NCBI GenBank assembly: GCA_963664325.2
Contig: CAXXDQ010000004.1
Location: 768,001 to 832,000, forward strand
DNA from: Desulfomonilia bacterium
Lineage (GTDB): Bacteria; Desulfobacterota; Desulfomonilia; UBA1062
Length of the DNA: 64,000 nt
Reading direction: 5' to 3'
A model generated the notes under the pieces. It did not search any database. It was not told the DNA's origin and saw only the letters and a list, made by a program, of their open reading frames with translations. Below, one piece after another: positions 43,492-62,119 of the stretch. Made by a program: the position numbers and the translations under genes. How positions within the stretch are numbered: position 1 is the stretch's first letter; each line of letters begins with the position of its first letter.

Positions 43492-43564
43492 ATATTATTC
43501 TCCGCTTCACGGTTTTATTCTCACCACTCACAACCCTTCTCTCGTAATTATCTTTTTTCACTTC

Positions 43565-46925: not shown

Positions 46926-47900
46926 TCACAATTTAAGCGATATCCCGGCAATCGCTGCCGCCTGCTCCGCATACGGTGCCGTTTTCGTTCCTCCGATGCC
47001 TTCGAGCGTGCATGTTGCCACCGCTGCAGCGAACCGGGCGGTTTTTTCCAGGCCCCAGCCGTTGAGCACGCCGTAAACAAAGCCGGAATCAAACGCATCG
47101 CCCGCGCCTATTGAGTCCTGAAAAGTTTTAGGCGTTATTGCGTCTTGAGTAAAAATTCTGTCCGCTGTCGCAATTAATGCGCCATTGGCGCCCTGCTTGA
47201 TGACTGCAAGCTCAGGTCCGTGGGCGAGCAGATCCCGGGCTGCCGATTCGATCGAATCAAGCCCCGTTATCTCGAGCGCTTCAACTTCGTCGGTGAAAAC
47301 GATATCCACATAGTCTAGCAGGTTATCAAAATGCTTTATCCATGGCCGATCGAGGGGTGTCATTGGAAACTGTGTATCGAGAGCCGTTAAGAGTCCGTAT
47401 TGCTTCGCCTTTCTGAAAAGCTCGACAGTGGGCGCTCCCCACATCTGTGGATAGTGTAAATACCCTGCACAGAGAAGCATGCGGGCGCGCTTGAGCTGAT
47501 TTTCCTGCTCCGCTGTCAGCCGGGCCGGCCATGGCGCATGCGTCGAAAGCCTGCCGGTAAGCGGGCGCTTCCTGTCGCCGAACAGCAGGATATATATACC
47601 GATGCCGCTTGTTTCTCCGGGTATGGTTTCAACATGGCTGACATCGGCGCCGGCTTTTGTCAGGCTTCGCAATATCCATTCGCCGAAAAAATCGTCCGCT
47701 ACACATGATACGACCGCCACGCGCAGACCCAGCTTCGACATATCCGCAGCGCAATATCCCATCGAACCGGCTGGCGTAAGCTCGACCTCTGAAATATCGA
47801 CCCATTTTGTAAGGGCCTCCATATCGCGAGGCGCATTGCCTGCGATTATCATGTCCAGATTCAGTGTTCCCACTGCCACGACATCGTAATCCATAGACAC
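46926..47900 (-). CDS. PfkB-family carbohydrate kinase
   Basis: N-terminal AVGTLNLD; C-terminal DSIGAGDAF anion-hole motif. Confidence 0.88.
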   Translation of the reverse strand: MSMDYDVVAVGTLNLDMIIAGNAPRDMEALTKWVDISEVELTPAGSMGYCAADMSKLGLRVAVVSCVADDFFGEWILRSLTKAGADVSHVETIPGETSGIGIYILLFGDRKRPLTGRLSTHAPWPARLTAEQENQLKRARMLLCAGYLHYPQMWGAPTVELFRKAKQYGLLTALDTQFPMTPLDRPWIKHFDNLLDYVDIVFTDEVEALEITGLDSIESAARDLLAHGPELAVIKQGANGALIATADRIFTQDAITPKTFQDSIGAGDAFDSGFVYGVLNGWGLEKTARFAAAVATCTLEGIGGTKTAPYAEQAAAIAGISLKL

Positions 47901-47994
47901 GTCCTCCCCGAGCTTGCGTCTTGTGACAAATCAGTTTTCGTCAATATGCGCCTGATGTCATCGGTAAATCCCGGAGTCCTCTGCTTTCAAAAAT

Positions 47995-49251
47995 TTAATG
48001 GGAACCCGGCGGGAACAGCTGCATCCAGACACGCGCGTGCTTGGGGACGTTTGACCGCTGGCAGTCGGGATTGATATCACCGAGTTCCACTGCGCAGTAA
48101 TACGGCAGCAGCTGTATGACAAAAGTCGAAACGACCGCGAAAATGTGTTCATCGACATCCGGCAGTCGCAGAACATAGTCCATTAAGGGCGCGATGTCCT
48201 TGTCTTTCTCCGACACAATTCCAATTGCGGGAGTCTTGAGGCCGAGGGTCGCCTGGGCAATCTGTTTGAGCCATGGATATGACGGCCCGGGAGGGGCGAT
48301 GATTGCGGTTACTATGCGCTCATCGGTAAGGCCGAGCGCGCCATGAATATGACGGTCAGGGCACATGCCCTTGCAGGGGATGTGAGCCATCTCGTCGAAC
48401 TTCAGCGCGAGCTCTTCCGCTGTCGCAAGGTTGGGCCCTCCGCCGACGGATATAAAAGCTCGCGCGTTTTTGTATCTTTTGGCTATGGTGCGGCAGCGCG
48501 CATCGAGATTCTCTTTATTAGCCTCCAGCCAGTCCGGCATCGCATACAGCTGCTTGCGGAACTTTTCGTAATTCACTCTGCCCGGGGCTACCCTCCTGCC
48601 AAGTTCGAGGGCAAGCAGGACGCCGGCGGCGAACCTGGTCGCATAATGAAAGGTGTCTGAGCCCCCGGTGTCGAATCCGCCCTGGCAGATAACCGAGTCC
48701 TCGGTTATCTTTGTGAGCGGGCTGTGCGGTACGCTCGTCACGGCGATGAGGTATGCGCCGCCGCTCGCCGCCTTCGTTGCAGCGGCGTTTGCATCGAATG
48801 TCCGCCCGCTGCCCGAGAACACAAGGAATGCCGACTTCTTCAGGTTCCAGTTTCGTGTGCTGGTCATGAACTCGCCGCTGTCCACCTGGTCGGCGTCAAA
48901 GTCCGCGAACGCCCCGAATGCGCTTGCTGAGCCCATGCACACGAACTGAGATGTGCCGAGGCCCGTGCCTATTATGCGCGAGAGCTTCCTTTTGGCTATC
49001 TTTTCCGCAACAACGGCCACCTGGTCCGGAATGGTGTCGAGAGTGTCGCGCAACGCCTGAGGGATGCTCATTATGTCCCGATAAAGGTTGAAAGGATGCT
49101 CAGTTTTCGGTTCCGATCCGAGCGCAATATACATTGTGGGATATTCGCCGGTTCCCTCAATGGTGCGTTCGCCGCCGCCCTCAAGCCAGTCCCATTTCTT
49201 CCTAGGCTCTACTCCTTCGGATTTTTTCTTCCCGGCTTCCTTCTTCGTCAT
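47995..49251 (-). CDS. Double SIS-domain sugar-phosphate isomerase/deaminase (GlmS-C/FrlB/AgaS-like)
   Basis: GLGTS, FSGSGRT, GGGPNLATAEELALKFDE, HG. Confidence 0.78.
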   Translation of the reverse strand: MTKKEAGKKKSEGVEPRKKWDWLEGGGERTIEGTGEYPTMYIALGSEPKTEHPFNLYRDIMSIPQALRDTLDTIPDQVAVVAEKIAKRKLSRIIGTGLGTSQFVCMGSASAFGAFADFDADQVDSGEFMTSTRNWNLKKSAFLVFSGSGRTFDANAAATKAASGGAYLIAVTSVPHSPLTKITEDSVICQGGFDTGGSDTFHYATRFAAGVLLALELGRRVAPGRVNYEKFRKQLYAMPDWLEANKENLDARCRTIAKRYKNARAFISVGGGPNLATAEELALKFDEMAHIPCKGMCPDRHIHGALGLTDERIVTAIIAPPGPSYPWLKQIAQATLGLKTPAIGIVSEKDKDIAPLMDYVLRLPDVDEHIFAVVSTFVIQLLPYYCAVELGDINPDCQRSNVPKHARVWMQLFPPGSH

Positions 49252-49275
49252 TACGGTCGCTCCTTTCGGTCTGTT

Positions 49276-50133
49276 CTAAAATGTTTTTCCGCTGCTTTTG
49301 AACAGGCGCATCTTTGTTCTCACGGCTTCCTTCATATTGTCTATGCCCGGCTTGAATATTTTTCGAATGTCTATGGCGTCAGGATTGTCAGAGAGATACT
49401 CCCTCACTCCCGCTGTGAAACTCTTCTGAAGTTCCGTGGCGATATTGATTTTCCGGATGCCGCAGCGGATGAGCTCCAAGAAGATATCATCCGGAACACC
49501 GGAGGCGCCATGCAGTACAAGAGGGACTTTGACGAGGGCCGCGATTGCGGAGACACGCTCCAGATCGATCCTGGCGGTCTGCTTCCTCATTCCATGAACC
49601 GTGCCGACGGCCACAGCGAGCGAGTCCACCATGCTCGCCTCGGCGAACCTGGCGGCTTCATCGGGATCCGTAAGGGCTTCATCCTCTCCGCCATCCGTTG
49701 TTCCGGCTTCCTTTCCTCCCACATGCCCGATCTCTCCTTCGAGGCTCACGCCAGCCGGTCTTGCCAAGGCAGCGACACGCTGCATCTGTCTCACATTTTC
49801 ATCGAACGAGAGCGTCGAACAATCGTACATCACCGATGTGAAGCCGCCGTTTACAGCCTTGATTACATTTTCGAATTTCATACCGTGATCGAGATGTACG
49901 GACACCGGAACCGGCATGGCGGCCGCCATCTTCGGCAGGGCCTCGCAGAAAAGCGGCCATCCGGCGTGTTTGATCGCGCCTTCTGTCACTCCCACGATGA
50001 CAGGCGATTTTTCCTCGACGGCCGTTTCAATCACGGCTCTGATCTGCTCGATATTGTTGACATTGAACGCCCCCACGGCATATCCGTAGGAGGCCGCGTG
50101 CTGCAAAAGATCGTGGTTGTTTTTCAGCGGCAT
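49276..50133 (-). CDS. Class II fructose/tagatose-bisphosphate aldolase
   Basis: YAVGAFN, HLDHG, GTVHG, LVLHGASG, KINIATE; start MPLK at 50133. Confidence 0.92.
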   Translation of the reverse strand: MPLKNNHDLLQHAASYGYAVGAFNVNNIEQIRAVIETAVEEKSPVIVGVTEGAIKHAGWPLFCEALPKMAAAMPVPVSVHLDHGMKFENVIKAVNGGFTSVMYDCSTLSFDENVRQMQRVAALARPAGVSLEGEIGHVGGKEAGTTDGGEDEALTDPDEAARFAEASMVDSLAVAVGTVHGMRKQTARIDLERVSAIAALVKVPLVLHGASGVPDDIFLELIRCGIRKINIATELQKSFTAGVREYLSDNPDAIDIRKIFKPGIDNMKEAVRTKMRLFKSSGKTF

Positions 50134-51074
50134 CGCCGTTGTTCCGAGATGAGAGACATCACCTGTCTGAGTGATGGTATTCCTGCGCGGGCGCCGATCG
50201 AGCCGCAAGACAGGAAAGCGGCAGCATTCGCGAACTCGGCGCATTTTTCAGGGGGCCAGCCGCTCAGAAGACCGTGGATGTAACCTCCGTGGAAAACGTC
50301 GCCTGCACCGGTGGTGTCGACTATGGCGCCTTTAGCTTTGTATCCCGGCGATATGAATTTGCGCTGGGCCGTTGCGCCTATGCAGCCCTTTTCCCCAAGG
50401 GTGATCAGTGCGACTTTCGGGCCCCGCTCGAGGATCTTCCATACTGCGTCTTCCGGTTTTGCCTTTTCACCGAAATACTTGCGCACAAACGTATGGGAAG
50501 CAATGAAGTGATCCGTGTGGGTGAACAGCTCATCCATCCGCTCGCGCGGCCTGCCCAGGTCGATCACGGTTTCACCGCCCCGTTCCCGCACGAGCTGCAT
50601 CGCTTTCAGCGCAACCTGAGTTTCGTTGCCGTCTACGTGAAGCACCCGGCAGAACGGGAGGTTCTTTCTGGCGGCGACCCTCGCAGGCAACGGTATCACG
50701 CGCTCGCGCCCGAGGACCATCGTCCGGGTTCCTTTCGACATGTCGATCCACACAAACGCCTTTTTCGTCTCTGTTTTCTTTGACAGAATCATGTGGGCGG
50801 TATCGACTCCGAAACTCTCCATCTCTCTGGTGATAAAGCGTCCTTCGTCATCGTCGCCCGCTATTCCGATCATAGCAACATTGCGCTTCCATTTTCCCAG
50901 CGCCACCAGCGCGGTTACGACCGGCGCGCCGCCCTGATGGATATATTTCTTCGCCACTGTTTTGTCGTCTATTGCAGGGAATTTGTCGAGCAGGCACTGA
51001 TAATCGACAACACAGAATCCCAGGCCGATGCAATCGTATAAATTTTGTCCGCCTGACTTCAGGATTTTCTTCAT
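50124..51074 (-). CDS. PfkB-family carbohydrate kinase
   Basis: QGGAP, ITLGEKG, DTTGAGDVFHGG. Confidence 0.88.
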   Translation of the reverse strand: MKKILKSGGQNLYDCIGLGFCVVDYQCLLDKFPAIDDKTVAKKYIHQGGAPVVTALVALGKWKRNVAMIGIAGDDDEGRFITREMESFGVDTAHMILSKKTETKKAFVWIDMSKGTRTMVLGRERVIPLPARVAARKNLPFCRVLHVDGNETQVALKAMQLVRERGGETVIDLGRPRERMDELFTHTDHFIASHTFVRKYFGEKAKPEDAVWKILERGPKVALITLGEKGCIGATAQRKFISPGYKAKGAIVDTTGAGDVFHGGYIHGLLSGWPPEKCAEFANAAAFLSCGSIGARAGIPSLRQVMSLISEQRRCR

Positions 51075-51562
51075 TATTCCAGATCTCCGGAAAACAATTT
51101 CCCAAGTACGGCAGGGCGGAATAGCTTCTGGCGGAGATGATCAATACAGCCGCCTTAAGTCGAGTATGCTTTTATCCTGATGACAGCAGCTTCTCTTTGG
51201 CGTGAGCAGCTTCAGCCCGTGCGATTTGAATGCCTTCAATAATGACATGAACTCGCCCTGGGATAAATTGAATACACAAAGAAAAAGTGATGTATGTCAA
51301 GAAGAAAAAATCTCAAGATAAAGTGGCCTTTCTCATTACATCCCGTGAAGATAATGACAAACAGATTCCAAAATGTTAGCGGGATGACCCAAGATACGAT
51401 GACCTTGCTCCACGGCCGATAGCAGGAGTTTTTGCATGTGCTAAGCTGTAGCATGGCGCATTCCGACATTTTAAATATCATCAAATTCAGCATTTAAAAA
51501 AGGAGGATCATCATAGTATCCTGTCATTTGTTTAAAATGTCATTGACAATTAACACTGATAT

Positions 51563-51578
51563 TTGTAAACGTTTACAA
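51563..51578. promoter_or_regulatory. LacI-family operator
   Basis: Perfect 16-bp palindrome TTGTAAACGTTTACAA with central CG, overlapping the promoter downstream of TTGACA (51543-51548). Confidence 0.8.
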
Positions 51579-51606
51579 TAAATCAATCCGAGTTAGGACC
51601 AGGGAA

Positions 51607-52626
51607 ATGAATATGCCAATTTTTACCGTAGCAGTGATCGGTGCCGGACGTATGGGCTCGATCCACATAACCAACATCATGGATCATATGACCTCTGTAA
51701 CCATCAGCGGGGTGTATGACACGGACCCTGGTGCCGCCGATAAGGAGATCATACGAAAGTATGGTCTTATCTGTTACGGCTCCGACTCCGAAATATGGCG
51801 GGATACAACAGTTGATGCAGTTTGCATCTGCTCTCCTACCACGACCCATCTGGAGTACATTCGAAAAGCCGCCCGCGCAGGAAAGCATATCTTCTGCGAG
51901 AAGCCGATCGGTGAGGATATCTCCGGGATCAAGGAAACTCTTAAAATAGTAAAGTCTGCCGGTGTGACCCTGATGGTCGGATTCAACCGCCGTTTCGACA
52001 ACAATTTCCAGCGGGCGGCGAGCGCGGTCAGGAAGGGGGAGATCGGATCTCCCCATGTAGTTAAGATTACCTCCCGCGATCCCCATCCGCCTTCAATGGA
52101 ATTCATCAAAACCTCGGGCGGGCTTTTTTTCGATATGAGCATACATGACTGGGACATGGCCCGCTTCCTCATGGGGGCCGAGATCGAATCGGTATACGCC
52201 ACCGGTTCGAACCTTGTTGACCCGGAGATAGGCAAGCTCGGTGACATCGATACCGCCGCAGCAGTGCTGCGTTTCACATCAGGGGCTATTGCCGTTATCG
52301 ACAACTCGCGCCAGGCCGTATACGGTTATGACCAGCGTATCGAGATATTCGGCTCAAAGGGATCGGTCGTCATCGGCAACCAGCCGACCAACACGGCTTG
52401 CATCAGCACGGCTGAATGCATAAAACACGATTCCATCCCGCACTTTTTCATAAACCGGTATATGCAGTCGTACTGCGACGAGCTGAAAATGTTTTTTGAA
52501 ACCCTAGAAAAAAAGGGGCCGTCCCCGGTATCCGGCGAAGACGGGCTTGCTGCGGTAAAGATAGCCCGCGCGGCGCTCATATCTCACAGGGAAAACCGCC
52601 CGGTTTCATTAAAAGAGGTGGAATAG
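51607..52626 (+). CDS. iolG: Inositol 2-dehydrogenase-like (Gfo/Idh/MocA) oxidoreductase
   Basis: GAGRMG, CEKP, VGFNRRFD, TSRDP, SGGLFFDMSIHD, YGYDQRIE. Confidence 0.85.
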   Translation: MNMPIFTVAVIGAGRMGSIHITNIMDHMTSVTISGVYDTDPGAADKEIIRKYGLICYGSDSEIWRDTTVDAVCICSPTTTHLEYIRKAARAGKHIFCEKPIGEDISGIKETLKIVKSAGVTLMVGFNRRFDNNFQRAASAVRKGEIGSPHVVKITSRDPHPPSMEFIKTSGGLFFDMSIHDWDMARFLMGAEIESVYATGSNLVDPEIGKLGDIDTAAAVLRFTSGAIAVIDNSRQAVYGYDQRIEIFGSKGSVVIGNQPTNTACISTAECIKHDSIPHFFINRYMQSYCDELKMFFETLEKKGPSPVSGEDGLAAVKIARAALISHRENRPVSLKEVE

Positions 52627-52647
52627 GGCCCTATCGGTATTAATAAA

Positions 52648-53643
52648 ATGAACGCAACCATAAAAGACATCGCTAAAAGACTGGATATATCTTATGCCAC
52701 GGTTTCCCGGGCCCTGAACGACCGGTACGGAGTCCATCCGAAAACGAAGGAAAGAATATTGGCGATGGCGCAGGATATGAACTATCTCCCCAATGCAATC
52801 GCCCGCGGGCTGGTCAGGCAGCGCACGGAAACCATCGGCCTCGTGATCCCGGATATCACCAACCCCTTTTTTCCTGAAGTGGCCCGCGGAATCGAGGACA
52901 GGGCGGAAGAAAAAGGATACAGCGTATTGCTCTGCAACACCAACTGGGAGCAGGAGCGTGAGGCACGCTACCTTTCGCTTCTCAGGGAAAAACGGGTTGA
53001 CGGCATTATTCTTGCTCCCGTATCCAACAAGTCTCTGTTTGACCGGGAGTTTGATGACAAAGCGCGGCCTCTCGTATTCGTCAGCGAAGTCCGGCGAGGC
53101 ATGGGTAAAAGCTATGTGGCCATAGACAATATCCACGGAGGATACATCGCAACCCGGCATCTCATACAGAAAGGATACAAACGAATCGGCTTTTTCGGCG
53201 CGGCAGAGGACGAACTCACCAGTGAAGAGAGATATCAGGGATATACCAAGGCATTGAAAGAGGCCGGAATTAAGGAAAGAAAAAAATTCATCAGGTTCGG
53301 CGATTACAGCACAAACACAGGCAACAGGCTCATAACAGGCATGATAAAAAAAGGTGACTATCCCGACGCGGTATTCGCGGTGAATGACCTGTTTGCGCTC
53401 AGCGTCATGCAGGGAATCCGGGAAGCAGGGCTCAGAATACCCGGGGATATAGCGGTGATCGGCTTTGATGACATCCCTTTTGCATCTTTCCCGGAAATCC
53501 AGCTAACTACAATCGCCCAGCCTAAATACCAGATGGGCCGTATTGCGGCGGATCTGCTGCTGGAACAGATACATGAAAAATCAGGCGCAAAAAAAAAGGA
53601 GATCATCCTTGAAACAGAACTCATCGAGAGGGGGACTGCATAA
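52648..53643 (+). CDS. LacI-family transcriptional regulator
   Basis: TIKDIA...SYATVSRALN HTH; IPDITNPFF; VIGFDD; LTTI. Confidence 0.95.
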   Translation: MNATIKDIAKRLDISYATVSRALNDRYGVHPKTKERILAMAQDMNYLPNAIARGLVRQRTETIGLVIPDITNPFFPEVARGIEDRAEEKGYSVLLCNTNWEQEREARYLSLLREKRVDGIILAPVSNKSLFDREFDDKARPLVFVSEVRRGMGKSYVAIDNIHGGYIATRHLIQKGYKRIGFFGAAEDELTSEERYQGYTKALKEAGIKERKKFIRFGDYSTNTGNRLITGMIKKGDYPDAVFAVNDLFALSVMQGIREAGLRIPGDIAVIGFDDIPFASFPEIQLTTIAQPKYQMGRIAADLLLEQIHEKSGAKKKEIILETELIERGTA

Positions 53644-54479
53644 TGAAACCGACCAGCGAGATTTTAGGATATTCACCGGATGCGAGATTGCTCATCATCA
53701 ACATCGACGACTTCGGGTTCTGTCATACGGCTAATATCTCGGCAATTCAAACGATGAAGCACGGCCTGGCAAGCTCATTGACAGTCATGGTCCCCTGTCC
53801 GTGGGGCCTGCACGGGTTGAAGCTCCTTGCCGAGAACCCGGACATTCCCTTCGGTGTTCACCTCACGGCCATGAGCGAACATGAAATCTTCAGATGGGGG
53901 CCGGTATGCCCGCCTGATGAGGTGCCGAGTCTTGTGGCCGAGCGCGGCTTTTTCCCTACGGAAGATGAGAGAGACGGCTTCATATCGAGGATAAACGTCA
54001 AAGACATCGAAAAGGAATTCAGGAAACAGATCGAGATCGTCTTTAATGCAGGGCTCAGTCCCAACCATCTGGACAGCCATTGCAACATCCATGACAGCCG
54101 GGAAGACATCTTCGATATGACTGTGGGGCTGGCAAGAGAATACGGACTGGCGCTGAGGGTCCACGAGCCGCGTTTTTTAAAGAAACTGAAAGAGAAGGGA
54201 TACGCAGTTATCGATTACCCGGATGTGGACAGTTTCAGGCTTCCGACCGAGGGAAAGGATGCGCTGTATAAAAAGATGCTCAGGGAACTGCCGCCAGGGC
54301 TCTCCGAGTGGGGTATACATCCGGCAAGAGAAACCGACGAACTGAAAAGCATTACCGACGAGTGGCCGGTGCGCGACGCCGATTACCGCTTCTTCAATTC
54401 CGAACTGGCCAGACAGGTCGTTCAAGAGGAAGGGATAAAGATAATTACATACAAGGAACTGCAGAAGTTCTGGAAATAA
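53643..54479 (+). CDS. YdjC/ChbG-family carbohydrate deacetylase
   Basis: LLIINIDDFG, GVHLT, HLDSH, HP. Confidence 0.85.
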   Translation: MKPTSEILGYSPDARLLIINIDDFGFCHTANISAIQTMKHGLASSLTVMVPCPWGLHGLKLLAENPDIPFGVHLTAMSEHEIFRWGPVCPPDEVPSLVAERGFFPTEDERDGFISRINVKDIEKEFRKQIEIVFNAGLSPNHLDSHCNIHDSREDIFDMTVGLAREYGLALRVHEPRFLKKLKEKGYAVIDYPDVDSFRLPTEGKDALYKKMLRELPPGLSEWGIHPARETDELKSITDEWPVRDADYRFFNSELARQVVQEEGIKIITYKELQKFWK

Positions 54480-54498
54480 TAGAAGGGGGAAATAAATT

Positions 54499-55701
54499 AT
54501 GCCTGGACCCGGAGCATATTTAATAGATGAAGAAGAGTACAACGAAGTTGTCGATGTCCTGAAAGCGAAGCATATCAGCAGGTACGGGAGTGACGACGAT
54601 CCTTCATTCAGACAGAAGGTGCATACCCTTGAAAGGGAATTCGCATCAGCAATGAACGCGCAGTTCAGCGTCGCGGTCAATTCCGGGACAAGCGCGCTGA
54701 TGGCCTCTCTTGTAGCCCTGGGCATAGGCCGCGGCGACGAAGTCCTGGTGCCGGGGTATACCTTTATCGCATCCATGTCATCCATAATAGCCATAGGCGG
54801 CACCCCTGTGCTTGTCGAGGTGGACGAGTCCCTCACCATGGACCCCGCAGACTTGGAGAAGAAGATAACGAAAAAGACAAAGGCCGTCATGCCGGTTCAC
54901 ATGCTGGGCAATCCCTGCAACATGAAGGCGATATGCGAAATAGCCGGCAGACACAAACTGTCTGTAGTCGAAGACTGCTGCCAGGCGCTGGGTGGAACAT
55001 TTCAGGGAAAGCGTCTAGGAACGTGGGGAAATATCGGGGCCTATTCGCTGAATGTCTACAAAGTAATCAGCGCAGGGGATGCCGGCATCCTCGTAACCGA
55101 CGACAGGGGACTCTACGAGCGCGCCTTCGGATTCCACGACCAGGGACATTTGCCCCACCGCAAGGGCGTCGAGATAGGGAACCGGAGCCTGATCGGCATT
55201 AATATGCGCATGAACGAGCTCACGGGTGCCTTTGCCCTGGCACAGCTCAGAAAGCTGGAACGCATCCTCACGCTCCTCAAGGAGAAGAAAGCGAGGTTTA
55301 AAGAAGCCCTCTCTGACGCAGGCCTCAAGGGGATGCATTTCAGGACCATAAACGACCCCGGCGAGTGCAACACGCTGCTTACGGTCATCTTCGAATCTGC
55401 GGAGCTGGCCGAAAGGGCGGCGAAAGCGCTGGGGACGAAAACGCTCAACAAGAGCGGATGGCATGTGTACAACAACATGGAGCAGATGATCGCATGGAGG
55501 GATGAAGATGGAAACGCGCCGATCAGGAAAAATATGCTGCCGAGGACCGATGACATCCTTTCACGGAGCCTGAACTTTAGCGTCGGCGTTGTCGACGGCG
55601 GCATAGGGTCCGATTTCGGTATAACCATACTCTCAAACGACAGTGAAATAGACAGGAAAGCCGAGGAATTTGTAAAGCGGATCAAACCTATTATCGATTA
55701 A
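54499..55701 (+). CDS. DegT/DnrJ/EryC1/StrS-family PLP aminotransferase
   Basis: VNSGTSAL, GDEVLVPGYTF, MPVHMLG, EDCCQA, SLNVYK. Confidence 0.92.
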   Translation: MPGPGAYLIDEEEYNEVVDVLKAKHISRYGSDDDPSFRQKVHTLEREFASAMNAQFSVAVNSGTSALMASLVALGIGRGDEVLVPGYTFIASMSSIIAIGGTPVLVEVDESLTMDPADLEKKITKKTKAVMPVHMLGNPCNMKAICEIAGRHKLSVVEDCCQALGGTFQGKRLGTWGNIGAYSLNVYKVISAGDAGILVTDDRGLYERAFGFHDQGHLPHRKGVEIGNRSLIGINMRMNELTGAFALAQLRKLERILTLLKEKKARFKEALSDAGLKGMHFRTINDPGECNTLLTVIFESAELAERAAKALGTKTLNKSGWHVYNNMEQMIAWRDEDGNAPIRKNMLPRTDDILSRSLNFSVGVVDGGIGSDFGITILSNDSEIDRKAEEFVKRIKPIID

Positions 55702-55708
55702 GGGGGGG

Positions 55709-57004
55709 ATGCCTATGTGGTACGTGGCGGGCATTGTCTGCATCTGCTTCATACTTGTGCTGCTGCTGAAACCGCGGAACAGGGGAGGAGCTCATGACGG
55801 CTATTTCAAGTCAGTAAATGAGGTCCTTAAAAAGGAAACCGACGGAACACCGAAGATATTCTGCGACCTTGACCGTCTCGACAGGAATATCGAGCGCATG
55901 ATGGAAACATTAGGCAGCGGAAGAACAGTCAGGATCGTCGACAAGTCCCTTCCCTGTTATGACCTTCTCCGTTATGTCATGGGTAAAATGGGGACTAAGA
56001 AACTGATGTGTTTCCATACCCCGTTCATTCCGTCGATCCTTGCCGAACTGGGATACGACATCGATATTCTCATGGGCAAGCCTCTTCCCGTGAGATCCGC
56101 CGAGGGATTTTTTCAAGCCATTGCAGATAAGGAAAAGGCAGCGCTGGCGATCAAGTGGCTCATTGATACGCCGCAGCGTCTCTTGGAATACCGGAGCCTT
56201 GCCGAAAAAATGAACCTCACGATGCAACTGAGCATAGAGCTCAACATCGGCCTCAACCGTGGAGGGGTGACCAGCATTGAAATGCTTCATGAAATGATGG
56301 AGACGATAAGGTCAAACCCGAAAACACTTTGCTTTACGGGATTCATGGGCTACGAGGGGCATGTGCCACATGTGCCCGCTCTCTTCAATCACGTATCGGC
56401 CATTCAAAAAGAGCTGAAAAAGACAATGGACCGATACCATGAATACTGCCGGTACGCAGAAGAGAACTTCAGGGAAGTTTACTCGAAGGCAACGACATTC
56501 AACACAGGCGGCAGCGGAACCGTCAGTTTTTACCATGACAGGTTTCCTGAAATGGAACTTGCAGCCGGAGGCGCCTTCCTAAGGCCGGCAAGCTATCCGG
56601 ACGTTTCCCTAAAAGGCTTCGAGCCGGCCATGTTCATCGCAGCACCCGTCATCAGCAAACCGGGCCCTGTAAAGATACCTTTTGTGGAGTTTCTGACTCC
56701 GCTTGTAACATGGTGGAATCCGAACATGTTGCAGTCCGTCTGTGTGTATGGTGGCGGATGGGCGGGACAGTTTATTTCCCCGCCCGGGATCGATCCGCTC
56801 AATATGCTGAACGATCCTCCGAACCAGAACCTGCTGCCTAACCAGTCCCTGCTGGGCATATCCGACAGGACGCCGCTCTCCATCGGGGATTATATCTTTT
56901 ACTGGCCCAAGCAAAGTGACGCGATGTTTCAGTTCCACAATCTGCTTACCATTCGGGGAGGTGCGATCACAGGCGAGTGGAAGACCTTCCCGTTCGGATT
57001 TTAG
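55709..57004 (+). CDS. Fold-type III PLP enzyme (alanine racemase-N / DSD1-like) with N-terminal membrane anchor
   Basis: DLDRLDRNI, RIVDKSLP, ELNIGLNRGG, GFMGYEGH, TGGSGT. Confidence 0.75.
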   Translation: MPMWYVAGIVCICFILVLLLKPRNRGGAHDGYFKSVNEVLKKETDGTPKIFCDLDRLDRNIERMMETLGSGRTVRIVDKSLPCYDLLRYVMGKMGTKKLMCFHTPFIPSILAELGYDIDILMGKPLPVRSAEGFFQAIADKEKAALAIKWLIDTPQRLLEYRSLAEKMNLTMQLSIELNIGLNRGGVTSIEMLHEMMETIRSNPKTLCFTGFMGYEGHVPHVPALFNHVSAIQKELKKTMDRYHEYCRYAEENFREVYSKATTFNTGGSGTVSFYHDRFPEMELAAGGAFLRPASYPDVSLKGFEPAMFIAAPVISKPGPVKIPFVEFLTPLVTWWNPNMLQSVCVYGGGWAGQFISPPGIDPLNMLNDPPNQNLLPNQSLLGISDRTPLSIGDYIFYWPKQSDAMFQFHNLLTIRGGAITGEWKTFPFGF

Positions 57005-57053
57005 GAAAGGTATCGTGTATCAGAACATTATTGAATAAAAAGGAGGTTAATCC

Positions 57054-58427
57054 ATGAAAAAAGGTTATGTAGTTCCCCTGCTGGAAAAAATAGCCTTCGG
57101 CGTTGGGGACATGCCCGGCAATCTGACCTACCCGGCCCTTCAATTTTATTTCGTTTACTACATTGTAAACATTTCAGGTGTTCCCGCGCATCTTGCCGCC
57201 CTCGTCTATCCGATAGGCAGGGTGTGGGGCGCGATCCTGGACGTCATCATCGGAAGGATTTCCGATCGAACGGAAAGCAGGTTCGGACGGCGGCGGCCCT
57301 ACCTTCTTTTCGGCGCGATACCGCTCGGTTTGTCTTTCGTGCTTCTCTGGCTCATTCCGTTCAAATCCACGACTGCCATGTTCGTGTATTACCTTGCCGT
57401 GGTGGTGCTGTTCAACACCATATTCAGCATAACGACCATCCCGTATAACGCGCTTCACCCTGAATTGACCCAGAACTATGACGAGCGGACGACACTGTCC
57501 GGATTCAGGATAGTCTGTTCTTTCGTTGCCAATATAATCGCAGCCGCAGGGGTTGCGGTCATCGTCGACAATATCTATCCGGGTCGCCAGGCGTACAGGG
57601 AAAGCTATCCGGTCATGGGGTGGATCGTTGCCGCCCTGGTCGTGATCATGTACCTTTTCACATTCACGTTCACTAAGGAACGGGTGAAACCCGAAACCAG
57701 GGAAACAGAGGGAATTATACAGACGTTGAAATCTTTCTGGAAAATGAAAGAGTTCAGAAGCGTCCTTGCCATTTTCCTCTTCAATCAGATAGGGGCGGAT
57801 GTCTTCATGTTCATTATCATTTTCTTTTTGAAAGATGTCATCATGATTCCGGAAGACACCACCTTTATCATTATGGGCATCCCTATCATCACTGCGATCG
57901 TAGTGGCGCCATTCTGGGTCTGGATGGGGTCGCGTCTGGGGAAACCGAAGACGCTTACCATATCGTCCATTTACTTTGCCTCGGTACTGCTTTTCTGTCT
58001 CCTTGCCCCTGTGAAAAACCTCTACTTCGTGATCGGCATCGCAATATTCATCGGCATCGGCATGTCGGCTTCGCAAGTCCTTATCTGGTCCATTATGCCT
58101 GATGTGATCGAAATCGACGAATACGAGAACGGGGAAAGGCGGGAAGGAGCCTTTTACGGCATTACATCACTTATCTATAAGGCGGCCTCTGCGGTAGCTG
58201 TAGCCGCTGCAGGGTCTTTGATCGCCTGGTTCGGATATGTGGAAAACAGTGCGGCACAGCCGCAGTCGTCGCTCACGGCCATACGGTTTCTTATGGGCAT
58301 AGGCCCGGCAATGTTCTTCCTGCTGACTGCCATTACGGTGAGCAGGCTGCCGATAACGAAAGAGCGTTTCGAAGAGGTCATGAAAGCGCTTGACGAACGG
58401 AAGAAGCAGAAACAGCAGGCTGTATAA
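57054..58427 (+). CDS. MFS glycoside-pentoside-hexuronide (GPH) transporter
   Basis: ISDRTESRFGRRRPY, IPYNAL, YDERT, RREGAFYG. Confidence 0.9.
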   Translation: MKKGYVVPLLEKIAFGVGDMPGNLTYPALQFYFVYYIVNISGVPAHLAALVYPIGRVWGAILDVIIGRISDRTESRFGRRRPYLLFGAIPLGLSFVLLWLIPFKSTTAMFVYYLAVVVLFNTIFSITTIPYNALHPELTQNYDERTTLSGFRIVCSFVANIIAAAGVAVIVDNIYPGRQAYRESYPVMGWIVAALVVIMYLFTFTFTKERVKPETRETEGIIQTLKSFWKMKEFRSVLAIFLFNQIGADVFMFIIIFFLKDVIMIPEDTTFIIMGIPIITAIVVAPFWVWMGSRLGKPKTLTISSIYFASVLLFCLLAPVKNLYFVIGIAIFIGIGMSASQVLIWSIMPDVIEIDEYENGERREGAFYGITSLIYKAASAVAVAAAGSLIAWFGYVENSAAQPQSSLTAIRFLMGIGPAMFFLLTAITVSRLPITKERFEEVMKALDERKKQKQQAV

Positions 58428-58457
58428 ATCGGGAAAAAAACAAGAAGGGGGGAAAAT

Positions 58458-59273
58458 ATGGCCAGTTCATTCATCAAGGAAACCATGCTGGAAATGACGT
58501 GGGTTGAGATTAAGGAGGCGGCCGAAAAAGATGCGGTCGTACTGTTCCCCATAGGTGTCGTGGAAGAGCACGGGCCGCATATGACGGTTTCTGCCGATAT
58601 ATATCTGTCGTATCTGGTTGCCCGTGAAGCCCGGAAGTGTCTGTTGCAACAGGGAAAAGAGTCAATCATTGCGCCGCCCTTTTATTGGGGAATAAACGGG
58701 ACCACGGTCAAATTTCCCGGTTCGTTCGTCGTCACCAGACAGACAATGACGGCAATTCTGATCGAACTCCACATGTCGCTAAAAAACTGGGGTTTTAAAA
58801 AAATTGTGGACATCCCGGGTCATGGCGAGACGGACCATCTTCTCGCCATAGAGGATGCCTTGAAAGTCGTATATGAAAACACTGGCGAAGGGGTCTATAT
58901 GGTCCTGCCGACATTCATGGCCGAAAAGGCGGGAGTCAAAAAGAGTCCGTATATCGTTTTGATTGATGTTCCTGAACTGTCGAGTGAGGACCCCGATTCA
59001 TATCTGGATATTCATGCGGGAGCCCTCGAGGTTTCACCGATGCTGCATTTTTTCCCGGACATTGTAAACACGGAAATACTCAAGACACTGAAACCGACCG
59101 AGTTGACCTTGAAAGACTACCGGCTGTGGGAAGAGGGAGGAGAATTCTTCGACCGGACATCGCCCCTGGGATACGCGGGTGATCCGGCTTCAGCCAATCC
59201 GGAATTGGGCAGGATTATGATTCAAACATTCGTAGAAGAATCGGTAAAAACCATGATGGATAAACTGAGATAA
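58458..59273 (+). CDS. Creatininase-family amidohydrolase
   Basis: EMTW, PIGVVEEHGPH, FPGS, GHG, HAGALE. Confidence 0.88.
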   Translation: MASSFIKETMLEMTWVEIKEAAEKDAVVLFPIGVVEEHGPHMTVSADIYLSYLVAREARKCLLQQGKESIIAPPFYWGINGTTVKFPGSFVVTRQTMTAILIELHMSLKNWGFKKIVDIPGHGETDHLLAIEDALKVVYENTGEGVYMVLPTFMAEKAGVKKSPYIVLIDVPELSSEDPDSYLDIHAGALEVSPMLHFFPDIVNTEILKTLKPTELTLKDYRLWEEGGEFFDRTSPLGYAGDPASANPELGRIMIQTFVEESVKTMMDKLR

Positions 59274-59359
59274 CTGGAATGTAGCAGTGCCGGGCATTCC
59301 GGACGGGACAAGGGCAATCGGAATATCCGGTACGGCCGTAAAGACCCGGGAGGGAATTA

Positions 59360-60718
59360 ATGAATTCTGCCGAATCGGTCACATCAGGTGAAATGAGGCC
59401 TTTTGAGGGCTTTGTGATTCCCCTGTCTGCGTTCACTCAATCCATACTTTACACGCTGATCGGAAACTTTGCCATGTTCTTCAGCACCGACATTATCGGT
59501 CTGGCCCCGGCTGCAATAGGGACAATGTTCCTCATAGCCAAGGTATGGGACGGAATATTCAATCCTATATTCGGATTCATAGCCGATAAAACAAATACGC
59601 GATGGGGTAAATTCAGGCCGTACTTGATGTTCGCATCCGTCTTTGTTTCATTATTCGCGGTCATGACTTTCAGGGTCCCGCAGGCGGATAAGCAGTGGCA
59701 GTTCATATACATCGGCGCGGCGTATATTCTCTTCAGCATGGCATATACCGTCATCGATATCCCGGTGTGGGCTTCCCCGACCATCGTTACCAAAGATAAC
59801 AACAGGACCACCTCCATTGTGGCAAGGGTTCAGCTCTCCGCCATCCTCGGAGCGATCCTGGCATTCGTTCTCACAACGCCGCTCGTCGGCGCCCTTGGCC
59901 GGGGGGACGCGCGGGACGGCTTTGCATATACCGCCATGGCCTATGGCCTGTTGAACCTCGCCGTACTTATCTTAACCGGCATCGTCATAAGGGAAAGGGT
60001 CTCGACGGATGCCAGAAGGGAAAGAGTGGACATAAAAAACGTTCTCAGAATCATTTTCCGAAATAAATTTCTTGTTATCGCAATGATCACATCGATACTC
60101 GTCAATACGATGTTCACATTAAAAAGCATAATGGTTCCGTATTTCGCCACCTACGACCTCGGCAATATCAAGCTGCTGCCCCTGATCATGATCGCGATAA
60201 CCATTCCAGGGCTTGTGGGCTTGATGTTCGCACCGTTGCTCATCAGAAAATTCGGAAAGCAGAAAACCGTGATAGCCACTCTGTCTGTCAGCCTGGCATT
60301 GAGCGTATTCACATATTTCGTCCCATACAACAACCTCATTGCTTTAATCGTATTGCACGGAATCATATCCTTTTTCATGTTTGTTCCGTTTGTCATATCG
60401 ACAACGATGTTTGTCGATTGCGTCATTTATGCCGAATGGAAATTCAACGTAAGGGCGGAAGGCATAATATTTTCCTGCAGGACATTGACTGGAAATGTCG
60501 GTATAGCGCTGGCGTCGTTTTTATCAGGCCTTATCCTGACCCTGATCGGCTATGTTGCAAACACGGCGCAGACACGGACCGCCCTGTACGGTCTGCAGGC
60601 ATCCCTTACGCTCTTTCCCGCAATCATCATCGGCCTGAGCATCATCCCGCTCTTCTTCTACAATTTATCTCAGAATAAACTCGATCAGATGTCAGCTGAA
60701 AATGAAATGAAGGCATAG
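59360..60718 (+). CDS. MFS GPH transporter (second copy)
   Basis: DKTNTRWGKFRPY, DIP, RAEG, IGY. Confidence 0.9.
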   Translation: MNSAESVTSGEMRPFEGFVIPLSAFTQSILYTLIGNFAMFFSTDIIGLAPAAIGTMFLIAKVWDGIFNPIFGFIADKTNTRWGKFRPYLMFASVFVSLFAVMTFRVPQADKQWQFIYIGAAYILFSMAYTVIDIPVWASPTIVTKDNNRTTSIVARVQLSAILGAILAFVLTTPLVGALGRGDARDGFAYTAMAYGLLNLAVLILTGIVIRERVSTDARRERVDIKNVLRIIFRNKFLVIAMITSILVNTMFTLKSIMVPYFATYDLGNIKLLPLIMIAITIPGLVGLMFAPLLIRKFGKQKTVIATLSVSLALSVFTYFVPYNNLIALIVLHGIISFFMFVPFVISTTMFVDCVIYAEWKFNVRAEGIIFSCRTLTGNVGIALASFLSGLILTLIGYVANTAQTRTALYGLQASLTLFPAIIIGLSIIPLFFYNLSQNKLDQMSAENEMKA

Positions 60719-61099: not shown

Positions 61100-62119
61100 C
61101 TATGCATTCTCTTTTGGCTTGTCAAGACCTATTGTTTTGGTATCTTTGCAGGTTTCAGCCTGCTCCAGAAGAGGAGAGATTGCCCTCCTTATTCTTAAAA
61201 CATCATTGCGCAGATAATTGATCTGCGAAGCAAGAAATCCGAAAGACAGTATCTGCATGCCCCCTAATATGAATATGGCCATAAACATTAGGAGAGGCCG
61301 GCCAGGGCTGAGGGTCTGGTTTAAAAACAGGGCAAGTATATATATGCCGATACACAGCCCGATCAGTGTGAGTAAAATTCCGATTATGCCGAATAAGAGA
61401 ACAGGCCTTTCAAAGGCAGTGAATATCAGGTGAGTAACTGCTGTCGATCTGAACTTGAACTTCGATTTGCCTTTTTCCCTGGCCCTGAGAACGGCAGGAA
61501 TCTCTTTTATCCTGAATCCCATTGCAATGGCCTTGGAGAGAATCTCGAGATGGATTTCCTTGTCATCAGATTCAAGGTCAAGGCTTTCTATCACAGCCCG
61601 CCTGTAACACCTGACAATGCATGTAACGGTATGTATCTCTTCTGTTATTGAGAGTCTCAGAATCCTGTTGCCGACCTTGCTGATCAAGAGCCTGTTTCTG
61701 GGCACTCCGACCGTTGCTCCGCCGGGCATGTAGGCGCTGGCCAGTATGATGTCGACATCCGAATCTTCATGAAGCTCCTGGACCATCTTAAGTATATATT
61801 CGGGATCATATGAGAGATCGGCGTCGATAGAGGCTATCAGTTCACCTCTTGCAGCCCGGAAGCCATACCTTAAGGCCTTGCCCCTGCCCCCGTTTTTCCA
61901 GTATGAAACAACCCTTATCCTCGGATTTTGACCGGCGATCTCATCGAGCTTTTTAAGGGTCGAGTCAGTGCTGCCGTCATTCACAGGAAGAATCTCAAAT
62001 GTTTTACCCAGGGTTAAGAGCGTTGCTTCAACCCGGTCAATAGTTGACCGGACATTAGCCTCTTCATTGAACATAGGGATTATCACACTTAAATAAGGTC
62101 TGCTGTTTGAATGCTCCAT
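61100..62119 (-). CDS. GT2 glycosyltransferase (polyprenol-phosphate glycosyltransferase-like)
   Basis: LSVIIPMFNE, NDGSTD, GKA...G, IDADL, two C-terminal TM segments. Confidence 0.9.
   Translation of the reverse strand: MEHSNSRPYLSVIIPMFNEEANVRSTIDRVEATLLTLGKTFEILPVNDGSTDSTLKKLDEIAGQNPRIRVVSYWKNGGRGKALRYGFRAARGELIASIDADLSYDPEYILKMVQELHEDSDVDIILASAYMPGGATVGVPRNRLLISKVGNRILRLSITEEIHTVTCIVRCYRRAVIESLDLESDDKEIHLEILSKAIAMGFRIKEIPAVLRAREKGKSKFKFRSTAVTHLIFTAFERPVLLFGIIGILLTLIGLCIGIYILALFLNQTLSPGRPLLMFMAIFILGGMQILSFGFLASQINYLRNDVLRIRRAISPLLEQAETCKDTKTIGLDKPKENA

Follow-up and report, generated by a model that had tools for sequence, protein, structure and literature searches.

DegT-family aminotransferases, which depend on pyridoxal phosphate (PLP), are usually biosynthetic enzymes, and nearly all attention has gone to the amino sugars that they provide for antibiotics and cell surfaces. 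For the breakdown of myo-inositol, a classical route (IolG/IolE/IolD/IolB/IolC/IolJ/IolA) and a Thermotoga-type route (IolG/IolM/IolN/IolO) are known, and scyllo-inosose is the compound common to both. Rhizopine breakdown involves the moc families, i.e., the IolE-like MocC, the oxygenase/ferredoxin proteins MocDEF, the binding protein MocB, and the regulator MocR. The available part of one rhizopine study names the catabolism genes mocCABRDEF, describes MocB and MocR, and reports that IolG and the aminotransferase MosB interconvert myo-inositol, scyllo-inosose, and scyllo-inosamine in vitro (PMC6668481). Here we describe a locus in which a DegT gene appears to serve catabolism. It occupies positions 46926-60718 of a stretch of 64,000 nucleotides (the window; assembly GCA_963664325.2, contig CAXXDQ010000004.1, positions 768,001 to 832,000) from an uncultured Desulfomonilia bacterium. 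A rightward operon encodes an IolG-type dehydrogenase, a LacI-family repressor, a YdjC-family deacetylase, the DegT aminotransferase, a fold-type III PLP enzyme (foldIII), a creatininase-family hydrolase, and two GPH-family symporters (GPH1 and GPH2), whereas a leftward operon encodes two PfkB kinases, a protein with two SIS domains, and a class II aldolase. The right operon is most likely an entry branch through which an amino-cyclitol or amino sugar reaches inositol catabolism. Our preferred reading, put at slightly less than an even chance, is that of a LacI-repressed catabolic operon for an N-acetylated amino-cyclitol, with the four leftward genes as an independent unit.

The genome (G000; 4.3 Mb in 9 contigs) is accompanied in the reference set by three sister species (G001, G002, and G003). 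Family calls were made by listing open reading frames (ORFs) and scanning them with Pfam and NCBIfam profiles against curated cut-offs. All 12 genes named in an initial annotation, four leftward and eight rightward, were recovered as ORFs at their positions and with the families assigned to them (Table 1). The operons are adjacent and divergent across a common spacer of 532 bp, and the rightward intergenic gaps of -1 to 86 bp are compatible with a single transcript. The sole enzyme of the locus above an equivalog cut-off is the IolG-type dehydrogenase; both carriers pass the general GPH model TIGR00792 only, and the aldolase passes the subfamily model TIGR00167 only. Within 46926-60718, the scans detected no IolE, IolD, IolB, IolM, IolN, IolO, nucleotidyltransferase, or glycosyltransferase, and no methyltransferase within the right operon. 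The initial statement that iolE, iolD, and iolB as well as nucleotidyl- and glycosyltransferases are missing therefore stands for the locus; for the genome as a whole its iol part does not, since these genes lie on another contig.

The link to inositol concerns the gene company of the DegT subfamily. Via this subfamily, 80 metagenome loci were collected (36 of them at least 7 kb long). They were compared by tblastn, 549 of their ORFs were clustered, and cluster representatives and members were then assigned to families by profile scans. Locus L132 carries on one strand YdjC-DegT-foldIII-GPH-IolB-IolD-TAL/FSA-type aldolase-MMSDH-IolE-like-IolG, where IolB (320 vs. a cut-off of 205 bits), IolD (876 vs. 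715), and MMSDH (531 vs. 448) pass, whereas the IolE-like protein stays below (197 vs. 290). According to the clustering, L120 has the same gene set, except that no IolB ORF was called; the IolG genes of L120 and L132 are cut by the contig end and reach 339 and 296 bits, respectively. The other route is met in L149, with the order LacI-IolM (473 vs. 450)-IolN (317 vs. 245)-IolO-like-IolG (416 vs. 355)-DegT, and in L146 and L147, where an APC-family permease is followed by DegT-IolM-like-IolN (324 vs. 245)-IolO-like-LacI and no IolG is in view. The IolG equivalog is also passed in L124 (447 bits), L130, and L143, and IolN in L174 and L189; together with L132, L146, L147, and L149, at least 9 of the 80 loci thus contain an inositol-pathway equivalog above cut-off, a lower bound, as the scans took in selected gene clusters only. 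Accordingly, the DegT subfamily occurs with both known inositol routes, IolB/IolD/IolA/IolE-like and IolM/IolN/IolO-like. As it joins both and takes the place of IolG in L146 and L147, the simplest assignment would be an inosamine:2-oxo-acid aminotransferase working toward the ketone. The initial proposal that DegT and the IolG-type enzyme act on an aminocyclitol gains support from these operons, in which DegT relatives sit among IolB/IolD/IolA/IolE-like/IolG or IolM/IolN/IolO-like genes.

In the part seen of the inositol operons of L132 (L132:9868-16915) and L120, neither an IolC kinase nor an IolJ aldolase is present, and a gene of the transaldolase/FSA family is found instead; these operons may represent a non-phosphorylating variant of the lower inositol route. 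A further side observation concerns L130 (11686-12861) and L139 (3-1019), where a classical alanine racemase gene adjoins DegT, which may hint at pyruvate and alanine as amino acceptor/donor pair.

The window IolG has 3ezy (6e-95) and the inositol 2-dehydrogenase 4hkt as its best solved relatives and is 46% identical to a second IolG in an iol cluster on contig C8 of the same genome. In that cluster, IolD (926 bits), IolE (408 bits), and IolG (466 bits) all pass, whereas an IolB-like gene stays below its cut-off (108 vs. 205); neither PfkB nor class II aldolase was found in it. On contig C6, an IolN (514 bits) passes beside IolM-like, IolO-like, and GPH genes. IolD and IolN are above cut-off in all four genomes of the genus, including two that lack the left operon. 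With iol routes elsewhere in the genome, a downstream route exists, and the steps "reduce, phosphorylate and cleave", originally ascribed to the left operon, need not come from it. The idea that the absent iol genes imply a new lower pathway is likewise not borne out, since iol genes lie on other contigs.

For the chemical steps and the substrate of the right operon, we infer the following course. A GPH symporter would import a neutral N-acetyl compound, YdjC would take off the acetyl group, and DegT would transfer the amino group to a 2-oxo acid, yielding a keto-cyclitol (inosose). The IolG-type dehydrogenase would then interconvert inosose and inositol, or set up a second keto group, and the product would pass into the IolE/IolD/IolB-like route on C8 and the IolN/IolM-like/IolO-like route on C6. 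An inosamine-type compound, or an amino sugar closely resembling one, is the probable substrate, although we would put this at about an even chance at best.

The DegT protein belongs to a tightly conserved subfamily. Among the matches listed, its 119 other relatives are all 61-91% identical; those outside the genus share 61-67% identity, are about 400 aa long, and are in part labelled Anaerolineae or Spirochaetota. At E<=1e-60, the family comprises 3617 proteins among 8000 candidates scored. K188 is invariant across 27 aligned members and is, in our reading, the PLP-binding lysine. The recurrent neighbours in the 80 loci are Gfo/Idh/MocA (GFO) dehydrogenases (27 loci), LacI (25), ribose-type ABC permeases (18), YdjC (13; 15 by tblastn), PIG-L deacetylases (9), Zn-dependent dehydrogenases (9), PfkB-like kinases (8), foldIII (5), GDPD (5), amino-acid-type permeases (5), GPH (4), four clusters of xylose-isomerase-like barrels (6, 5, 4, and 3), and two creatininase-family counts (4 and 3). 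Fifteen same-class loci with more distant DegT relatives (35-41% identity) were considered as orthologous clusters and rejected, none of them holding any other of the 11 genes.

Deacetylase genes are common ahead of DegT. Among the 57 loci with at least 800 bp upstream of DegT, the directly upstream gene is YdjC in 11 and PIG-L in 5: where DegT shares at least 60% identity (31 loci), YdjC was counted 11 times and PIG-L never, and below 60% (26 loci), YdjC never and PIG-L 5 times. That two non-homologous deacetylases take the same position argues that N-deacetylation precedes the aminotransferase step. The window YdjC has 8jqe ("YdjC family protein", 8e-41) as its best solved relative; it passed only the YdjC Pfam family and scores below the ChbG equivalog (NF002559; 80 vs. 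227 bits). In a neighbour-joining tree of 90 DegT sequences, rooted on four relatives of 38-41% identity, the window, its sisters, and the metagenome contig L115 group with the YdjC-linked loci; the IolM/IolN/IolO-linked sequences form a neighbouring group, and those linked to PIG-L and levoglucosan-dehydrogenase-like genes stand further out, together with a paralog from the window genome itself. Taken as a whole, the subfamily resembles a general module for turning amines into ketones, in which the class of substrate can be read from the partner dehydrogenase; in the clade of the window, this partner is IolG.

Regulation also points to catabolism. In the AT-rich spacer (G+C 0.41 over 51075-51606), the perfect palindrome TTGTAAACGTTTACAA was spotted by eye, 28 bp ahead of the iolG start codon. 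It occurs as a single exact copy in the 4.3-Mb genome and overlaps a promoter-like TTAACA-18-TACAAT at 51550-51579, although such sites are not above shuffle expectation in this region. The three sister genomes and L115 have its 14-mer core immediately ahead of iolG, and TGCAAACGTTTGCA is found upstream of ydjC in L118 and L124, such that the element is conserved ahead of iolG or ydjC in six related loci. TTGTAAACGTTTACAA is likely the operator of the LacI protein. A search for a shared regulon gave none: a near copy at C8:293544, about 750 bp before the IolB-like gene, has two mismatches, lacks the central CG, and is within chance by our own estimate (about one such copy expected, three seen).

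The combination of IolG with a DegT-type enzyme could also be understood the other way round, as a biosynthetic operon that makes an inosamine from myo-inositol, in the manner of rhizopines or aminoglycosides, and exports it through the GPH proteins. DegT enzymes are usually biosynthetic. According to the available part of the rhizopine study, IolG and a DegT-type enzyme do yield scyllo-inosamine in vitro (PMC6668481). Against this, the operon encodes a LacI repressor, a deacetylase, and two symporters whose family serves uptake, methyl-, glycosyl-, and nucleotidyltransferases are absent from it, and its relatives are embedded in inositol-degrading operons with binding-protein-dependent importers, so that biosynthesis seems highly improbable. 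The catabolic direction proposed at the outset agrees with the LacI protein and its conserved operator, the importers, and the lack of biosynthetic partners.

The right operon is modular. In all three sister genomes, iolG-lacI-ydjC-degT-foldIII-gph1 is kept (protein identity 72-92%), but flanked by radical-SAM and AMP-ligase genes, an LPP20-like lipoprotein, and an EF-hand protein. The counterparts of these flanking genes in the window genome are 100 kb apart and about 480-580 kb from the locus; the core thus sits at another chromosomal site in the sisters, and the six-gene block moves as a unit. At C4:341364-342771 of the window genome, the match to the sisters' 469-aa AMP-binding-like gene falls into overlapping pieces (residues 1-389 and 384-469), which may reflect a frameshift. 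The metagenome contig L115, with a DegT 83% identical to that of the window, shows the order iolG-lacI-ydjC-degT-creatininase-gph2, followed by an amino-acid-type permease; foldIII and gph1 were not found in it. In turn, the creatininase gene was not found in any of the three sister genomes, whereas a 77% identical copy directly follows DegT in L115, with a 73% identical copy of GPH2 after it. GPH1 follows foldIII in the three sister genomes and, at 50% identity, in L120 and L132; GPH1 and GPH2 are only about 22% identical to each other. The pairs foldIII+GPH1 and creatininase+GPH2 are therefore interchangeable add-ons, and the eight-gene operon of the window is the union of two variants: a core of iolG, lacI, ydjC, and degT plus two enzyme/GPH pairs. 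The probable contribution of these accessory pairs is a broader set of related substrates or another way of breaking C-C or C-N bonds. LacI, kept in the three sister genomes and in L115, passed no NCBIfam equivalog. That the genes of the right operon co-occur elsewhere, as expected of a genuine module, is borne out by the sister genomes and the metagenome loci alike.

Concerning the add-on enzymes, the creatininase-family protein scores below every equivalog, including MftE (TIGR03964; 82.7 vs. 172 bits) and creatininase (TIGR04448; 78.7 vs. 235 bits), and a Protein Atlas search returned only "creatininase family" clusters. FoldIII is weak by sequence (38 bits), but its AlphaFold model (pLDDT 89) confirms the fold-III call: the best fold match is the D-threonine aldolase 4v15 (E 9e-21, TM 0.69/0.79), and further Foldseek matches are 6qkb, 3wqf, and 3awn, the types represented being beta-hydroxyaspartate aldolase, D-threo-3-hydroxyaspartate dehydratase, and D-serine dehydratase. 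K79, in the N-terminal barrel, is invariant in 34 sequences. The model begins with a hydrophobic helix (residues 3-20) followed by K/R residues, which, going by the charges alone, we interpret as a membrane tether that leaves the catalytic domain in the cytoplasm.

FoldIII follows DegT in L120, L121, L132, and L148. The wider family comprises 455 proteins at E<=0.001 among the candidates scored, and of 80 foldIII-anchored loci in reference genomes, 79 are without the core genes of the window, save six weak GFO hits, the exception being G002; hence, the wider family lives in another, sphBCD-like context. In Proteobacteria (L042-L114; Pseudomonas, Variovorax, Solimonas, and other genera), where the relatives are 33-38% identical, an operon of this kind is widespread: in many loci, genes for a small cytochrome c and for a flavin adenine dinucleotide (FAD) oxidoreductase of the arabinonolactone-oxidase type precede the fold-III gene, with an AraC regulator, an aldehyde dehydrogenase, and a MetA-like porin nearby. 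Of the 79 loci scanned, 35 have the oxidoreductase and 23 the cytochrome. A 2-amino-1,3-diol is common to sphingoid bases, inosamines, and 2-amino sugars, and this shared feature makes retro-aldol cleavage, elimination, or epimerisation candidate reactions for foldIII. In the available part of a study on Pseudomonas, sphBCD, sphR, and sphA are sphingosine-responsive, and SphD is a "predicted PLP-dependent aldolase" without proven activity and dispensable in the assays of that paper (PMC11398299). A function of foldIII as D-glucosaminate dehydratase was considered and discarded, as the available parts of PMC12343721 and of the GapMind paper (PMC9007349) give no glucosaminate link for the family.

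A bolder interpretation gives both add-on enzymes a part in opening the ring, and we regard it as improbable. The ydjC-degT-iolG core with its add-ons would then constitute a new amino-cyclitol breakdown in which either of two unrelated enzymes opens the ring. The membrane-tethered foldIII would be a retro-aldol lyase on a cyclic 2-amino-1,3-diol, i.e., the carbocycle counterpart of sphingosine-1-phosphate lyase, and the creatininase-family protein would be an IolN-like hydrolase on the keto-cyclitol made by DegT and IolG. More generally, a DegT clade that textbooks would class as biosynthetic would, together with YdjC or PIG-L, give uncultured anaerobes a widespread means of admitting N-acetylated amino sugars and cyclitols to catabolism.

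The preferred assignment to an N-acetylated amino-cyclitol has several points against it. We know of no natural abundant N-acetyl-inosamine, and glycosides are the usual cargo of GPH transporters. Among solved relatives, KdnA and not the scyllo-inosose aminotransferase 7b0d stands closest to the DegT protein (214 vs. 156 bits); KdnA acts on the terminal aldehyde or primary amine of 3-deoxy-manno-octulosonate (Kdo). If DegT made scyllo-inosose directly, IolG would not strictly be needed, and yet the core retains it. Neither foldIII nor the creatininase-family protein has a place in the proposed steps, the latter not being IolN (NF041098; 48 vs. 245 bits, residues 12-125 only). The tree of the subfamily is without support values. 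Ten loci with DegT at 53-59% identity pair it with levoglucosan-dehydrogenase-like oxidoreductases (best-hit scores of 155-185 bits vs. a cut-off of 650), often with xylose-isomerase-like genes and PIG-L, which indicates that the subfamily is not restricted to cyclitols. Finally, the PfkB and class II aldolase of the left operon share families with IolC and IolJ, and as the C8 iol cluster has no IolC/IolJ pair, a link to the lower inositol route may remain.

Part of this evidence would also suit an ordinary N-acetyl amino sugar (a 2-, 3-, or 6-amino hexose or a 6-deoxy amino sugar), which would be deacetylated, transaminated to a keto sugar, and reduced to a common sugar by the IolG-type enzyme, the inositol link then reflecting only shared regulation or habitats. 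KdnA works on a free sugar acid, the oxidoreductases of the ten loci are sugar-3-dehydrogenase-like and stand with xylose-isomerase-like genes, ribose-type ABC sugar transporters (18 loci) and PfkB-like kinases (8 loci) occur among the 80 loci, and Bacillus subtilis IolG also oxidises glucose. In the YdjC-linked clade, however, the partner dehydrogenase scores best as IolG (passing in the window and in L124), and the genes that follow in L132 form a full inositol set; an ordinary amino sugar thus appears quite unlikely as the substrate.

Another candidate substrate, unlikely in our view, is a glycoside that links N-acetylglucosamine (GlcNAc) to inositol, such as GlcNAc-inositol or glucosamine (GlcN)-inositol from mycothiol, glycosylphosphatidylinositol (GPI) anchors, plant or fungal glycosyl inositol phosphorylceramides (GIPCs), or archaeal lipid head groups. 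After import by GPH and deacetylation by YdjC, DegT and/or foldIII would attack the 2-amino sugar and break the resistant glucosaminide bond, IolG would oxidise the freed myo-inositol, and in this genome the left operon could take the glucosamine part (kinase, SIS deaminase, phosphofructokinase-type kinase, and aldolase). This would suit the GPH proteins as glycoside carriers and the retention of an equivalog-passing IolG in the core despite another IolG in the genome. YdjC and PIG-L, which alternate beside the DegT subfamily, are known to deacetylate GlcNAc-type glycosides (ChbG), and MshB and PIG-L act on GlcNAc-inositol itself; moreover, GDPD phosphodiesterases lie near DegT in five loci, and the paralog cluster in the genome joins DegT and an oxidoreductase to a GH1 glycosidase. 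Against this, neither the window operon nor L132 and L120 have a glycoside hydrolase or lyase or an enzyme for the sugar moiety, and the left operon is not conserved alongside the core. Moreover, the IolM-like/IolN/IolO-like operons of L146 and L147 begin with DegT, stand with an amino-acid-type permease, and show no IolG, which fits the conversion of a free amine straight to an inosose.

The paralog just mentioned (L011; 52% identical DegT at G000:C4:634000-654000, about 177 kb upstream of the window locus) is part of a leftward run of DegT, a levoglucosan-dehydrogenase-like GFO protein, a phosphotriesterase-family protein (possibly a lactonase), GH1, an MFS carrier, and a histidine phosphatase, with a divergent ROK regulator adjacent. 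It looks like a separate catabolic cluster for a compound of the amino-glycoside type. Three further loci (L165, L167, and L179) combine a divergent LacI, DegT, and a levoglucosan-dehydrogenase-like GFO protein with an MttB-family methyltransferase and a sulfoquinovose-isomerase-like protein of 434 aa.

Table 1. Genes and putative operator of the divergent locus, with positions in the window and supporting profile scores.
Feature	Position	Strand	Profile match or remark
PfkB kinase 2	46926-47900	-	PF00294, 119.5 bits
Two-SIS-domain protein, GlmS isomerase-half-like	47995-49251	-	PF01380, 72 bits
Class II ketose-bisphosphate aldolase	49276-50244 (ORF)	-	PF01116, 316 bits; TIGR00167, 283.7 vs. 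cut-off 215.6
PfkB kinase 1	50124-51074	-	PF00294, 133 bits; leads the leftward operon
Putative LacI operator, 16-bp perfect palindrome TTGTAAACGTTTACAA	51563-51578		
IolG-type inositol 2-dehydrogenase	51607-52626	+	TIGR04380, 424 bits vs. cut-off 355
LacI-family repressor	52648-53643	+	PF00356 plus sugar-binding domains
YdjC-family deacetylase	53643-54479	+	PF04794, 160 bits
DegT-family PLP aminotransferase	54499-55701	+	PF01041, 255 bits
Fold-type III PLP enzyme (foldIII)	55709-57004	+	PF01168, 38 bits vs. cut-off 24
GPH-family symporter 1 (GPH1)	57054-58427	+	TIGR00792, 250.5 vs. 231
Creatininase-family hydrolase	58458-59273	+	PF02633, 158 bits vs. 31
GPH-family symporter 2 (GPH2)	59360-60718	+	TIGR00792, 308 vs. 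231

The left operon is best regarded on its own. Family alignments of the aldolase begin at residue Met38 of the ORF, which makes 50133 the probable true start; the protein shares its family with IolJ. Neither PfkB kinase passes the IolC model TIGR04382 (cut-off 300 bits): this model (IolC-N) is the best NCBIfam match of kinase 2, with 119 bits, whereas kinase 1 scores highest with ribokinase (108 bits, also below cut-off) and reaches 90 bits with IolC-N. The SIS protein has sub-cut-off matches to the C-terminal half of GlmS (119 bits), NagB-II (47 bits), and GlmD (33.5 bits), and 2poc (1e-16) is its best solved relative. It belongs to an unnamed "SIS domain-containing" family of about 414 aa, many records of which are labelled Anaerolineae, and had no match at E<=1e-60 among 300 other sampled genomes of the phylum. 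It is probably a sugar-phosphate amino/keto isomerase, deaminase, or deglycase, and the four genes together would, in our reading, channel a phosphorylated amino or keto sugar into metabolism on their own.

The initial annotation had joined all 12 genes into a single route, in which the right operon deacylates, deaminates, and reduces, and the left one phosphorylates, isomerises, and cleaves. The divergent, adjacent arrangement across a common spacer lends itself to this, as do the IolC-N similarity of kinase 2, the family that the aldolase shares with IolJ, and the C8 iol cluster, which has neither a PfkB nor a class II aldolase of its own; in addition, L153 and L167 are DegT loci that carry a class II aldolase and an FGGY kinase. 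The proposal did not hold up in the comparison of genomes: the left operon adjoins the core in none of the three sister genomes, and G001 and G002 have no match to the SIS gene, though both keep the core and the iol routes. In G003, the entire four-gene operon lies on another contig than the core, among unrelated genes (an amidohydrolase, CoA-transferases, and ClpB), its PfkB kinase 1 being 86% identical to that of the window. By tblastn, the 80 DegT loci contain no match to the SIS protein or the PfkB kinases and two to the aldolase, at 30-35% identity. A genome-wide search for the palindrome found no operator copy near the left operon, and its G+C content (0.55-0.57) differs from that of the right operon (0.49-0.54; genome 0.479). 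A single route is hence decidedly improbable; the left operon was probably acquired from elsewhere and stands beside the core only in this genome.

Another candidate for the missing IolC/IolJ functions is a second pair of a PfkB (best as IolC-N, 125 bits) and a class II aldolase at G000:C4:193852-195634 (L197), accompanied by a DeoR regulator, a sulfoquinovose-isomerase-like protein, and a 665-aa protein without assigned family. Two repeat proteins are encoded directly past the left operon (window positions 38569-46543), one of 1640 aa with RHS/YD repeats and an RHS-associated core domain and one of 992 aa with WG repeats, and the region looks like an accessory-gene mosaic. At the other end, a GT2 gene (61100-62119) lies on the opposite strand just beyond the locus.

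If the right operon has the function suggested here, a new entry branch (N-acetyl amine to amine to ketone) would be added to inositol catabolism, and a large conserved DegT clade would be recognised in repressor-controlled uptake operons, beside deacetylases and both inositol routes. Thousands of genes named "DegT", "YdjC", "DSD1-like", or "creatininase family" in Anaerolineae, Spirochaetota, Desulfomonilia, and metagenomes from termite guts or sediments would gain a first functional handle, and the uncharacterised SphD family a second context. It would also imply an unrecognised pool of amino-cyclitols or amino sugars that serves as a carbon and nitrogen source in anoxic habitats.

Compared with the described systems that contain DegT enzymes, the locus differs from the kanosamine system NtdABC in that its DegT scores only 119 bits against NtdA (4k2b), compared with 214 bits against KdnA, and in that no HAD phosphatase was found in the locus. 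KdnA (8-amino-3,8-dideoxy-manno-octulosonate transaminase, 5k8b; 2.9e-62 over residues 4-335) is the closest solved relative; it acts on a free rather than a nucleotide-linked sugar and has the iron alcohol dehydrogenase KdnB as its partner. A scan of 15 proteins in and around the locus found neither an iron alcohol dehydrogenase nor a gene of Kdo or lipopolysaccharide synthesis, and the window DegT stands in a separate, tightly conserved 400-aa subfamily. In the literature searched, which left most subscription journals out of reach, no description of a DegT-dependent catabolic module was found. The left operon shares families and step logic with Aga (AgaS/KbaY), Frl (FrlB/FrlD), and the archaeal GlmD, but passes none of the equivalogs: FrlD 73 and 61 vs. 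247 bits, NagB-II 47 vs. 430, GlmD 33.5 vs. 580, KbaY 229 vs. 542, and the GatY subfamily 285 vs. 383. As to SphD, the layout around the Proteobacterial foldIII relatives matches the one given for sphBCD in the available part of the published account (PMC11398299); this likeness is one of the gene layout of foldIII relatives, and in the window foldIII is accompanied by YdjC, DegT, and a GPH carrier instead of an oxidase and a cytochrome.

With the Sinorhizobium rhizopine genes mos (IolG/IdhA plus MosB) and moc, as far as the available part of their description goes, the locus shares the dehydrogenase-aminotransferase pair around scyllo-inosose (PMC6668481), the window DegT being likened to MosB by role. 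It also shares the logic of an aminocyclitol as a source of both carbon and nitrogen. The differences are that the direction in the window is catabolic, that N-deacetylation is added, and that the host lineage is an uncultured anaerobe; by Pfam, none of the moc families listed above is present in the locus, where the regulator is of the LacI type. The general similarity is greatest with myo-inositol catabolism: the IolG equivalog is shared, and relatives of the window ydjC-degT pair are joined to both inositol routes in single operons. The locus is a member of neither, as IolE, IolD, and IolB are not among the genes of 46926-60718 and its creatininase-family member is not IolN; its deacetylase, its aminotransferase, its fold-type III PLP enzyme, and its creatininase-family protein are additions that neither described route includes.

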